Shown: positions 7,044 to 56,766 of the stretch, in pieces
Layout of the letters: each line of letters opens with the position of its first letter
How positions within the stretch are numbered: position 1 is the first letter of the stretch
NCBI RefSeq assembly: GCF_044324875.1
Contig: NZ_CP172185.1
From: Escherichia coli
GTDB lineage: Bacteria > Pseudomonadota > Gammaproteobacteria > Enterobacterales > Enterobacteriaceae
Length of the DNA: 64,000 nt
Direction: 5' to 3' (one strand)
Program-made: the position numbers and the translations under genes
The notes under the pieces: model-generated
The model's database searches: none
Seen by the model: only the letters and a program-made list of their open reading frames with translations
Told to the model about the DNA's origin: nothing

Positions 7044-8243
<1,200 letters not shown>

Positions 8244-9498: not shown

Positions 9499-10719
<1,221 letters not shown>

Positions 10720-53650: not shown

Positions 53651-53863
53651 AAAAGCCGAGGGGCGTCAACCGAAAAATGACCAATGATGGTGAGGAAAAA
53701 TCAGGGAAGTTGAAAAAAACTCATCTTAATTAGAGGCGATAAAAGATTTCTCTATAGAGCAATCCACCTCGCACGTTTTGACTGATATTCTGACAACACA
53801 GCGACACCTGGGCTTATTCGAAAAACAACGTCCTGCCACCGGATGGTGATGCTAAGGCATCTG

Positions 53864-53893
53864 ATTCGGCCTGCGCCCTCGCGTAGGCCGAAT
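53864..53893. repeat. REP-like palindromic element
   Basis: ATTCGGCCT-N12-AGGCCGAAT perfect 9-bp inverted repeat with no adjacent T-run, lying between the metF promoter and the accessory insert. Confidence 0.4.
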
Positions 53894-53949
53894 ACTGGAT
53901 CTGCAAAATCAACTGGTAACAAACAGATGAATCAACTCAATACGTACTT

Positions 53950-55503
53950 TTACTTGATATCTTTCACGCGCATACCGTTGATCTGTTCATCCGTGATGGT
54001 GTTACCCGCTTTGAAGTAATCAACCACGGCGTGATAAACGTAATAACCGCCCGTTGTGTTACGCGCTTTCCCTTCGGTAAAGGCGGTAAAACCATCTCCA
54101 CCATCAGCAAGGAAACTCTGAGTAGCAATGTGGTAAATCGTCGCATCTTCAATGGGTTTGCCATTCAGAGTCAGTGTGATTACCCGCTGACCAACCGGTT
54201 TGCTGCTGTCGTACTTCATTTCCAGGCCTTTCGATACCTGTAAAACGCCATTACTTAAACTTGCGCCGTGTTCCATCAAACTGCGTAATTGTTTACCTGT
54301 GAGATCCATCGTCACCAGTTCATTGGGGAACGGGAAGGTACTGATGACGCCGCCCATCGTAATCGCCCCTGCGGGGATCTCATTGCGAATGCCGCCAGAG
54401 TTGGTTAACGCCAATTGGGTGTTTTTACCCGCCGCTACCAGTAAAGCATCAGCCGCCAGGTTCCCGAGGGAAGCCGATTCACCATAGGCACGTTTTAATT
54501 CAACCGGCGATTTCGCGACCGTTTGTTGCACCACTTCATCAAGCTTTTTATTCCAGCCGTCGATCACCTGTTTCGTTTGCGGATCGGGCTTCCACTCATC
54601 GGCGTAAATGGTTTTAAGCTCGAAGTTTTTCACCGTAAAATCATGCGGCTTCTCTTTGTAGTCGAGGACCAGTTTGCCCACATCAATCCCGCCGCTGTCA
54701 GTGGAGAGGATGAGCGTATTGCCGACTTTAATCGGTTCCGGCGTACCCACATGTGCATGTCCGGTGATCAAAATATCCAGCCCTTTCACCTGACTTGCCG
54801 TCTGAATATCTTTATCCAACGCGCGACGCACATCGGTCCCTCCCATACTGGACTGGCGGGCCGGAACACCTTCGTGGATCAGGGCGACGGTCAAATCAAC
54901 CTTGCCTTTGAGTTCATCGATATAACGTTGTAGCCATTTAATTTCATCACGCGCCTCAATACCCACTCGCGTTGCCGCAGATACCGTGTCATTAAAGGCA
55001 AATACACCGTGCAAACCTATAACGCCTATTTTCACACCGTCTTTTTCGATGATGGTATAGGGCTTATCCCAGAATGATTTACTGCTGTTCTGATAAAAAA
55101 CATTGCCCTGCACAATCGGGAATTTTGCCTGACTCAACTGTAATAATGTGTTGTCCCAGCCGTGGTCAAATTCATGGTTGCCTATCGTGACGGCATCAAA
55201 CGGCATAGTATTCATAATATCGATAATAGCCTTACCTTTGGTCAGGCTGCTGATATAGGGCCAGGTAAAATAGTCGCCCGCATCAAAAAACCATGTCGCT
55301 TTATTTTTTGCTTTTTCTTGCTTAACCAGCGTAGTGATATTTGCCCAGCCGCCAATATCCCGTTTACCGTCAGCGATCCACGGCACTTTATAAGGCTCGA
55401 CATGTGCATGGAGGTCGTTGGTATAAATGATGGTGACATCTTTAGCGCAAGCCCAGAATGGCAGTGTTAATGCGATACCCGCAGCAAGTATTTTAATTTT
55501 CAT
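53950..55503 (-). CDS. Secreted bifunctional metallophosphatase / 5'-nucleotidase (UshA/CpdB family); not present at this locus in K-12
   Basis: 517-aa ORF: N-terminal signal peptide [20 protein letters not shown]; metallophosphoesterase motifs DLHAH, GDYF, GNHEFD, GHAHV; C-terminal 5'-nucleotidase motifs [20 protein letters not shown]; good SD (AAAGGGA) upstream. Confidence 0.85.
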
Positions 55504-55559
55504 AAACAGTCCCTTTCAGTGAGATAAAGGATTGCTACATTACGTTCTGAAAGAGTTAT

Positions 55560-55581
55560 TTATGTGAGAGTAATCACATCC
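55560..55581. promoter_or_regulatory. Candidate cAMP-CRP binding site in the divergent promoter region of the two accessory genes
   Basis: TTATGTGAGAGTAATCACATCC: TGTGA-N6-TCACA half-sites at 55563..55578, about 65 bp from each start codon. Confidence 0.5.
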
Positions 55582-55635
55582 ACAGGGGAGCGTTGCCGGA
55601 CAAAATCAACGACCATGTGAAATCGTTGGTGATAT

Positions 55636-56766
55636 ATGTCGACTCTGTTTACGATTAATGCCTGCAAGTCGTTTGGTTGCCGTAATTTAGGGCAGCCAAC
55701 ATCGACAGATTATAGCTGGCCCGACTATCGACTGGGTTATCCGGCATTGCACTGTCGGGCATGTGGCAGTTACCCGCCGTTGTTTGACGAGCAACAATTT
55801 CGTGACTGGTTGACAGTTCACTTATCTACTTTTGCAACAGAGAAAGGCCATTTTTGCCCGGTATGTTATGGCACAGAGACGATTTGTTATGGTCACAATC
55901 CACAGGGTTCGCAACGCATTCAATGCCGTAACTGCAAAAAAGTATGGACACCCAAACAATATCAGAAAGAAATAACGCCTCCCGAAATAATCGAAACGGT
56001 TGCTTTTCTCGTGCCATTTCAGGGAGTCAGCAGCGGGCAGAAACTGTATGTTTTAATCAGTTTTGATGCTCTTCGCGGTAATATTCTTCATCTTTCTACT
56101 AATTACACGCAGCATCAGGCTGGAGAAAGTCTGCATTATCGATACAGAGGAAATGCAGAACCAGAGTTACACGACAATAATATTGTACAACGCGTTGATA
56201 TGCGCGAAGCACAATTTCTACGCCGCAGTCAGTTTGATGAAATTCAGTATGGCAGCGCAGCGCTCAAGCGCAATGCCAAAGGCATTATTCTGCGTCCGGT
56301 TATCACAGCGCACGGGCATTTTAGAGTACTGAATATTTTATTCCCTACAGTAAAAACACATGTAATTTCACACGAGTGTTTTTTAAGAGGTGCGATTATT
56401 ACGGCCTGGGCAGAACTGTTTCGCCAACAGCAAGGTGAGATTTGGTTTATTGAAGAGGAAATAGCTGACTATACCGATAATACGCCCTGGCGTTTTCAGG
56501 GAACAACTTATCACGGCTGGTGGAAAAATCAGTGGCAACTTTGGGGTCAGGGCAAAAATCGTAAAATGGTATGTGCATTAACAGGCGGAAATAACAGCAA
56601 AGCTGAAATGCTCTCTTTCGCAACCAGCAGACATTTTATCGACTGGCTACATAAACAAGCAGTATTTACTCACAGCACCCCGCTTTCCGCAGGGCGCGTT
56701 ACGCAAATACTGCTTTCTCTGGCTCAGGATTACAACAACTGCGCCAGCCGGTTGATATCCGACTGA
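55636..56766 (+). CDS. Cys-rich hypothetical protein with two N-terminal zinc-ribbon motifs (second resembles transposase-type IS1 InsA / IS1595 ribbon) and an unrecognised C-terminal domain; not present in K-12
   Basis: 376-aa ORF in AT-richer DNA; CKSFGC...HCRAC and CPVCYGTETICYGHNPQGSQRIQCRNCKKVW (compare IS1 InsA CPSC...GHQRYLCSHCRKTW); last ~12 codons overlap the metL 3' end on the opposite strand. Confidence 0.7.
   Translation: MSTLFTINACKSFGCRNLGQPTSTDYSWPDYRLGYPALHCRACGSYPPLFDEQQFRDWLTVHLSTFATEKGHFCPVCYGTETICYGHNPQGSQRIQCRNCKKVWTPKQYQKEITPPEIIETVAFLVPFQGVSSGQKLYVLISFDALRGNILHLSTNYTQHQAGESLHYRYRGNAEPELHDNNIVQRVDMREAQFLRRSQFDEIQYGSAALKRNAKGIILRPVITAHGHFRVLNILFPTVKTHVISHECFLRGAIITAWAELFRQQQGEIWFIEEEIADYTDNTPWRFQGTTYHGWWKNQWQLWGQGKNRKMVCALTGGNNSKAEMLSFATSRHFIDWLHKQAVFTHSTPLSAGRVTQILLSLAQDYNNCASRLISD

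Follow-up and report, generated by a model that had tools for sequence, protein, structure and literature searches.

A probable domesticated and inactivated IS1-like transposase linked to nucleotide-scavenging genes in Escherichia coli and other gamma-proteobacteria

For eukaryotes, it is textbook knowledge that transposases can be domesticated as regulators of their hosts. FHY3/FAR1, which derive from Mutator-like elements, and POGZ are immobile, non-catalytic DDE-type transposases that are kept by the host and whose DNA-binding module is reused for regulation (PMC13306707). The InsA protein of the insertion sequence (IS) IS1 represses the IS1 promoter and needs both a zinc finger and an HTH (helix-turn-helix) motif for DNA binding (PMC12428005). 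Promoters controlled by CytR are centred on a CRP site with conserved sites on its flanks (PMC3454398). The present analysis concerns a 376-residue Escherichia coli protein (RefSeq WP_001306640.1, named hypothetical or 'cytoplasmic protein') encoded in a 64,000-nucleotide stretch of the chromosome (assembly GCF_044324875.1, contig NZ_CP172185.1; hereafter the window). This focal protein is very probably a domesticated, immobile and inactivated descendant of an IS1-like DDE transposase. It embodies the same concept as FHY3/FAR1 and POGZ; those proteins, however, are eukaryotic and belong to other transposon superfamilies, and for the focal protein a regulatory role is proposed here. Literature searches on its family and accession returned nothing relevant, and a search for a bacterial host regulator domesticated from a DDE transposase found no example.

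An IS1-like N-terminus and a degenerate RNase H-like core

The N-terminus of the focal protein holds two four-cysteine units, with exactly the spacings that an earlier sequence-only reading of this DNA had described. Ribbon 1 follows the pattern C10-x4-C15...C40-x2-C43, and ribbon 2 follows C74-x2-C77-x19-C97-x2-C100 and is trailed by KKVW. Across a family alignment of 53 sequences, C97 and C100 are invariant, C10, C15, C40, C43 and C77 are at least 90% conserved, and C74 is the majority residue. Ribbon 1 is the most conserved segment of the protein within the enterobacterial clade (81% mean identity). The resemblance of ribbon 2 to the IS1/IS1595 type is real, but it is sub-threshold in the focal protein itself. 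NF050000, whose cutoff is 28 bits, scores only 21.8 (E 2e-4), Pfam InsA matches weakly (E 0.023), and the IS1 family transposase model NF033558 scores 21.1 bits against a cutoff of 100, over model positions 1-46 only. NF050000 exceeds its threshold in the relatives P0141 (32.3 bits) and P0123 (31.4 bits), and hhalign aligns the family profile with IS1 InsAB' over residues 4-87 at 96.4% probability and E 1.3e-9; the InsAB' sequence used matched NF033558 over its full length with 243 bits. PF12760 (Zn_ribbon_IS1595) was matched by only 5 of the 53 members, at E<=0.1, and the DDE_Tnp_IS1595 domain that would mark the IS1595 family by none.

In distant full-length relatives (21-41% identity, 356-568 residues), ribbon 2 is followed by some 80 additional residues, and the NCBIfam IS1 model can be aligned to these proteins over its positions 1-81/87, which correspond to the zinc finger plus the HTH. 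In the E. coli protein, only 17 residues without helices lie between C100 and strand b1. Ancestrally, the family-specific zinc ribbon would have been followed by an InsA-type zinc finger, then by an HTH, the RNase H-like catalytic core, a beta insertion and helices at the C-terminus, an architecture that distant family members still show.

The AlphaFold2 model of the focal protein is confident (predicted local distance difference test score 95, predicted template modelling score 0.93). Downstream of the ribbons, it adopts the core topology b1-b2-b3-a1-b4-a2-b5-a3, and this order, together with structural similarity to solved members, identifies the RNase H-like fold of DDE transposases and integrases. 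ISCth4 (IS256/Mutator family, PDB 6XG8) shares 8% identity with the focal protein; unlike the latter it is an active DDE enzyme, and the two have no family-level sequence relationship. DDE enzymes carry the first aspartate (D1) in b1, the second (D2) directly after b4 and the glutamate at the opening of the helix after b5, as do D64, D116 and E152 of HIV integrase. The predicted equivalents in the focal protein are T121, R220/P221 and E247. Position 121 is threonine in 41 and serine in 9 sequences (50/53 together), and position 220 is arginine in 29, lysine in 10 (39/53 together) and glutamate in 5, followed by proline in 51 of the 53. Position 247 is acidic throughout (48 glutamates and 5 aspartates). 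The D1 and D2 carboxylates are absent in 50/53 and 47/53 members, respectively, and because two of the three catalytic carboxylates are replaced family-wide, the protein should not cut or join DNA. These results agree with the earlier remark that the protein lacks a DDE signature: the topology-based mapping yields no D-D-E triad, and neither Pfam nor NCBIfam detects a DDE domain. The core nevertheless remains functionally constrained, as shown by further polar residues that are invariant or near-invariant, namely N156, Y168, R197, Y205, H228, H246 and R251, of which R197 and H228 are invariant. The Trp-rich stretch that had been pointed out is likewise a family trait and lies after the core, with W295, W296 and W300 conserved in 46-52 of the 53 sequences.

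Searches of Pfam, NCBIfam, PHROGs, PADLOC and PDB sequences gave only weak zinc-ribbon matches and no assignment to a characterised family. The best PHROGs match was a transposase family (E 3.7e-4, weak zinc-ribbon similarity), no PDB sequence matched the C-terminal 270 residues, and no enzyme family in the libraries was matched. An hhalign comparison of the C-terminal profile with InsB did not detect homology to the IS1 catalytic region, so that the IS1 ancestry of the core rests on the fold together with the N-terminal homology.

Compared with IS1 InsA/InsAB', the focal protein has a homologous N-terminus and the same fold, but it carries an extra N-terminal zinc ribbon and helix, replacements at D1 and D2, an added beta insertion rich in Trp and a helical region of greater length at the C-terminus, and sequence similarity in the catalytic domain is undetectable. 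It also lacks the terminal inverted repeats (TIRs), frameshift organisation and mobility of IS1, and in the E. coli clade the HTH. Of the traits that define the IS1 family, then, it shows the zinc finger and lacks the HTH, the triad, the TIRs with mobility and a passing curated score. No inverted repeats were found flanking the gene, which is a single uninterrupted open reading frame (ORF) without InsA/InsB frameshift organisation. It occupies a median of one place per E. coli genome, at a syntenic site that is fixed across genera, as expected from the earlier judgement that it is not an intact IS.

The genera with full-length homologues, which are 56-100% identical, include Escherichia, Pseudocitrobacter, Citrobacter, Klebsiella, Enterobacter, Kosakonia, Phytobacter, Pluralibacter, Kluyvera and Rahnella. 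The pairwise ratio of non-synonymous to synonymous divergence (dN/dS) is 0.10-0.18, even at dS >1, which indicates purifying selection. The gene is thus a real one rather than a pseudogene, although decayed copies exist in some lineages. Transposase ancestry, absence of mobility signals, syntenic retention and purifying selection together characterise a domesticated transposase. They uphold the descent proposed in the sequence-only reading, which had also suggested a DNA-binding protein; that property we infer. When 1.84 billion representatives were scanned exhaustively with phmmer, only 120 clusters were returned, so the family is small and restricted. With a profile built from a 17-sequence sub-alignment of the family alignment, 70 loci were recovered among 100,044 species genomes. 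All belong to Enterobacterales, to Vibrionaceae (Vibrio, Photobacterium, Enterovibrio, Thaumasiovibrio) or to Psychromonas, Agarivorans, Aliagarivorans, Motilimonas and Celerinatantimonas. Distant members are automatically annotated as 'IS1 family transposase' or 'Transposase and inactivated derivatives'.

Gene neighbourhoods and the divergent promoter

In the window, the focal gene is transcribed divergently from the nucleotidase gene that had already been noticed next to it, which encodes a 517-residue UshA-like metallophosphatase/5'-nucleotidase. In 78 loci scored by tblastn with reference proteins, a scavenging gene (5'-nucleotidase, Tsx/NupC or deo) lies within 1.6 kb of the family member in 72 and within 250 bp in 58; among the six exceptions are short contigs, loci at contig edges and partial matches. 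In Enterobacterales, the family gene diverges from a UshA-like 5'-nucleotidase gene at about 133 bp, and this holds for paralogous copies at other sites. Vibrionaceae and Psychromonas place it directly downstream of a 5'-nucleotidase gene with which it is apparently co-transcribed. In Agarivorans, Aliagarivorans, Celerinatantimonas and Motilimonas, it stands beside nupC-deoCABD or beside deoB-deoD plus tsx, and in Franconibacter, Buttiauxella and 'Enterobacter pulveris' the homologue closes an operon of tsx, a phosphodiesterase gene and an ORF of 399 codons. The constant across loci is the pathway of periplasmic dephosphorylation, nucleoside uptake and Deo catabolism, not one partner protein. 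As read from the sequences, the nucleotidase begins with a Sec signal peptide and the focal protein has no apparent signal peptide. This contrast and the constancy of the pathway form a regulator-like pattern and speak against physical partnering of the nucleotidase. An involvement of the family in nucleotide/nucleoside scavenging is likely.

Some genomes hold two copies of the family. Paralogues in Enterobacter asburiae (L021), E. coli SCPM-O-B-8794 (L023) and Citrobacter sp. wls619 (L043) lie beside two to four tandem 5'-nucleotidase paralogues with 51-93% identity to the window enzyme. When the identity of the Vibrio partner nucleotidase was sought, the V. mimicus locus (L067) showed no match to the VCA0545 primers (PMC4714964). 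At one distant locus (L006, 1077-1988), a gene for an Rpn/Transposase_31 protein (PD-(D/E)XK, YhgA-like), another transposase-like host protein, neighbours the nucleotidase-tsx cluster, probably by coincidence.

The intergenic region between the nucleotidase and focal genes contains a perfect CRP-type core, TGTGA-N6-TCACA, which is the sole perfect copy in the window (0.11 expected) and is conserved at orthologous, paralogous and distant divergent loci. When 23 such regions, orthologous and paralogous, whose proteins are only 57-75% identical, are aligned, three conserved islands stand out. One is the CRP core, another is TTACGTTCTGAAAG, which lies towards the nucleotidase gene, and the third is CAAAATCAnCGACC-N5/6-AAATCGTTGGT on the side of the focal gene. 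The 11-mer AAATCGTTGGT is invariant in 23/23 regions, just upstream of the start codon, and loci at 35-40% protein identity show the same layout with the related word TTCGACTGACAAAATCAGTTGG. By our positioning, blocks 1 and 3 would overlap the -10/+1 regions expected of class II CRP-dependent promoters, one in each direction, and block 1 would cover the predicted -10/spacer of its promoter. Further near-matches to AAATCGTTGGT were considered as operators and rejected as coding coincidences. Exact or one-mismatch copies lie in tufB (9943-9953, minus strand, E-I-V-G codons) and, about 92 bp into every nucleotidase gene, among the codons of the T-N-D-L catalytic motif.

Genomic setting and allelic variation

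The features of the locus are collected in Table 1. Over the query region, the sequence is 100% identical to that of E. coli O169:H41 strain Res13. The gene order in the window is yijE-katG-metF-[5'-nucleotidase]-[focal gene]-metL-metB-metJ. The focal ORF starts with ATG, and its final 37 nt, at 56730-56766 and with the stop codon among them, overlap the 3' end of the convergent metL in antisense; the C-terminal tail encoded there is the sole low-confidence part of the AlphaFold2 model. An imperfect 27-nt inverted repeat with 74% complementarity and a 5-nt loop (56657-56715) lies within the 3' coding region, just downstream of the minus-strand metL stop, and may be a metL terminator embedded in the focal gene.

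Table 1. Positions of the gene, its domains and its surroundings in the window
Feature	Position	Strand	Basis
Two-gene accessory island (nucleotidase + focal gene)	53719..56728		Replaced in K-12
Partner gene, 517-aa metallophosphatase/5'-nucleotidase (UshA-like)	53950..55503	-	Divergent from focal gene
132-bp divergent intergenic (promoter) region	55504..55635		Alignment
Conserved block 1, TTACGTTCTGAAAG, nucleotidase side	55540..55553		23-region alignment
Perfect CRP-type core TGTGA-N6-TCACA, centre of intergenic region	55563..55578		Motif scan, alignment
Conserved block 3, CAAAATCAACGACC (55601-55614)-N5-AAATCGTTGGT (55620-55630), candidate operator or -10/+1 region	55601..55630	+	23-region alignment
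Focal ORF, 376 aa, probable domesticated IS1-like transposase derivative	55636..56766	+	AlphaFold2 model, dN/dS
Zinc ribbon 1, aa 8-48 (N8, C10, K11, C15, C40, C43), family-specific	55657..55779	+	Family alignment
Zinc ribbon 2, aa 73-104 (C74, C77, C97, C100), homologous to IS1 InsA/IS1595 N-terminal zinc finger	55852..55947	+	Profiles
Degenerate RNase H-like (DDE transposase) core, aa 118-263	55987..56424	+	AlphaFold2 topology, alignment
Trp-rich four-stranded beta insertion, aa 264-316, GWWxxxW motif	56425..56583	+	AlphaFold2, alignment
C-terminal helical region, aa 317-376, conserved S351, Y366-N367	56584..56763	+	AlphaFold2, alignment

The two-gene island shows presence/absence polymorphism and is carried by about 1837/5426 complete E. 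coli genomes. K-12 has 197 unrelated bp (L002, 618-814) in its place, with an annotated 44-aa hypothetical ORF inside, and homology to the window picks up again exactly at the metL stop codon. At least eight genera have the gene pair at this metF-metL site, and thus its absence from K-12 looks like loss rather than mobile gain elsewhere.

A mosaic allele is present in the B2 strain IHE3034 (L003). Identity to the window is 93-98% across the nucleotidase gene, the intergenic region and codons 1-114, and falls to 53-79% from about 55978 (55978-56766), the boundary between ribbons and core. The two proteins are 75% identical, with a dS of 1.1 against 0.15-0.2 for neighbouring genes. The drop at a domain boundary and the contrast in dS indicate that the C-terminal domain was exchanged as a module. 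B2 strains also carry an extra, frameshifted metallophosphatase/5'-nucleotidase gene between the focal gene and metL (L003, 5092-6172), with about 68% DNA identity to part of the first nucleotidase gene.

The dominant E. coli clusters are intact, and decay of the gene is independent in some lineages. The decayed E. coli alleles (P0050, P0046 and P0049) comprise a W303-stop form (178 member sequences) and N-terminal frameshifts. Kluyvera genomosp. 3 (L045) has a broken copy with internal stops and frameshifts, and Salmonella enterica subsp. arizonae (L046) gives a partial match to residues 126-368 only. The start of the metagenomic homologue P0132 was called too far downstream (L013, about 7870-8000); its upstream DNA encodes ribbon 1 (…NINVCKNFSCKNLG…LGYKALHCRHCDSYPPLFDDE), and P0132 therefore has a full N-terminus too.

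Candidate functions of the protein

What might a transposase derivative that should no longer cut or join DNA do beside genes for nucleotide scavenging? We consider it about an even chance that the focal protein is a local transcription regulator of the adjoining nucleotide/nucleoside scavenging genes. Local regulators are typically encoded in such a divergent layout, across a conserved promoter with a CRP site at its centre. The N-terminal zinc-ribbon module would bind the conserved blocks that flank the central CRP site, and the protein would modulate CRP-dependent divergent transcription of the nucleotidase gene and of its own gene, like InsA on the IS1 promoter. The remodelled pocket (T121, R220, H228, H246, E247, R197, N156 and Y168) may serve as an oligomerisation and/or effector-sensing domain, and the effector could be a nucleoside, a nucleotide or a pentose phosphate. 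Such a regulator would act on the same kind of genes (deo, nupC, tsx and nucleotidase-type) as CytR and DeoR of enterobacteria and vibrios, and the focal promoter shares with CytR promoters a CRP-centred layout with flanking conserved sites. The folds of CytR (LacI family) and DeoR (DeoR family) are, however, unrelated to that of the focal protein, and the conserved blocks are not known to resemble CytR or DeoR operators.

Several points weigh against a regulatory role. In the E. coli clade the HTH, which InsA requires in addition to its zinc finger (PMC12428005), has been lost, so that any DNA binding must come from the twin zinc ribbons. No additional operator copies were found, and part of the conserved blocks may consist of promoter elements that serve other factors; we infer DNA binding, regulatory direction and effector indirectly, from the conserved gene linkage, the blocks around the CRP site and the InsA-type module. 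The RNase H-like core is conserved as well as ribbon 2 in the enterobacterial clade (71% versus 74%), and its retained invariant polar residues could indicate catalysis instead of sensing. The triad positions were mapped by secondary-structure topology, not by three-dimensional superposition. Finally, the co-operonic layout of Vibrionaceae and of the Tsx group is equally compatible with a non-regulatory component of the pathway.

More tentatively, the whole family may be a case in which a bacterial DDE transposase was exapted as a transcription factor that responds to a ligand, and whose InsA-type module would recognise operators at nucleotidase, tsx, nupC and deo promoters. An IS1-like element would have been captured in a gamma-proteobacterial ancestor, and its dead RNase H site would have been remodelled as an effector pocket. 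On this reading, the family would form a third structurally unrelated class of nucleoside-catabolism regulator beside CytR and DeoR, and the domain-boundary mosaicism of B2 strains would amount to a swapping of sensor modules.

The strongest competitor to the regulator proposal, though on balance an improbable one, is a non-regulatory pathway component in which the pocket of His, Glu, Arg, Asn and Tyr residues is a catalytic or binding site for nucleic acids, nucleotides or nucleosides in the cell. Such a component could, for example, be an enzyme of the cytoplasm (a nuclease or one of phosphotransfer) or a protein that binds nucleotides and so feeds or senses salvage, and its zinc ribbons could hold the substrate nucleic acid. 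Strong conservation of the core, with R197 and H228 invariant and H246, E247, N156 and Y168 near-invariant, fits this role, as do the co-operonic arrangement with pathway enzymes in Vibrionaceae and in the Tsx/phosphodiesterase group and the loss of the HTH in the E. coli clade. However, two metal-binding carboxylates of the RNase H type are missing and a basic residue occupies D2, no enzyme family was matched, the most frequent partner reads as periplasmic while the focal protein has no signal peptide, and the divergent, conserved CRP-centred promoter is of a kind typical for local regulators.

Zinc ribbons commonly bind RNA, and the protein might instead be a post-transcriptional autoregulator whose ribbons contact an element upstream of the start codon in its own 5' untranslated region. 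This we regard as unlikely. The invariant AAATCGTTGGT does lie 5-25 nt upstream of start codons that vary in type and position, and it is overlapped by a short inverted repeat, CAACGA/TCGTTG. In the promoter alignment, however, the left arm of the putative stem varies and the right arm is invariant, without compensatory changes, and Rfam gave no match for the region; an RNA element was rejected on these grounds. The proposal also leaves unexplained block 1 on the nucleotidase side and the linkage to deo/nupC operons.

A two-gene anti-phage or other conflict system, made up of the nucleotidase and a nucleic-acid sensor on a variable island, is very improbable. Presence/absence polymorphism in E. 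coli and the swapped C-terminal domain of the B2 mosaic allele would suit it, but neither protein matches PADLOC-DB at E<=1, on which ground it was rejected. Moreover, the nucleotidase reads as carrying a Sec signal peptide, the neighbours elsewhere are the ordinary catabolic deo, nupC and tsx genes, the island occupies the same site in many genera with apparent loss in K-12, and no sign of positive selection was seen. Least credible of all is an active or recently decayed IS1/IS1595 family transposase gene, which the InsA-type zinc finger and the automatic 'IS1 family transposase' labels of distant members would suggest and which is ruled out by the missing TIRs, the fixed syntenic location with a median of one place in each genome and the catalytic carboxylates lost in most members, alongside the low dN/dS over dS >1, an NCBIfam IS1 score of 21 against a cutoff of 100 bits and the single ORF without frameshift organisation.

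The domesticated transposase described here is bacterial, DDE-derived and tied to nucleotide scavenging. It is a testable case, being a small protein with a confident model and a defined 132-bp candidate target region, and its reach extends to about one third of complete E. coli genomes and to common species of Klebsiella, Citrobacter, Enterobacter and Vibrio. Should the regulator proposal be wrong, the strict pathway linkage would still point to an unknown step in nucleotide scavenging. If it is right, a widespread 'cytoplasmic protein'/'IS1 family transposase' annotation would gain a role, and accessory periplasmic 5'-nucleotidases, together with deo/nupC operons in some marine gamma-proteobacteria, would gain their missing regulator. 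The protein would then also show how a retired RNase H-type active site may be reused.
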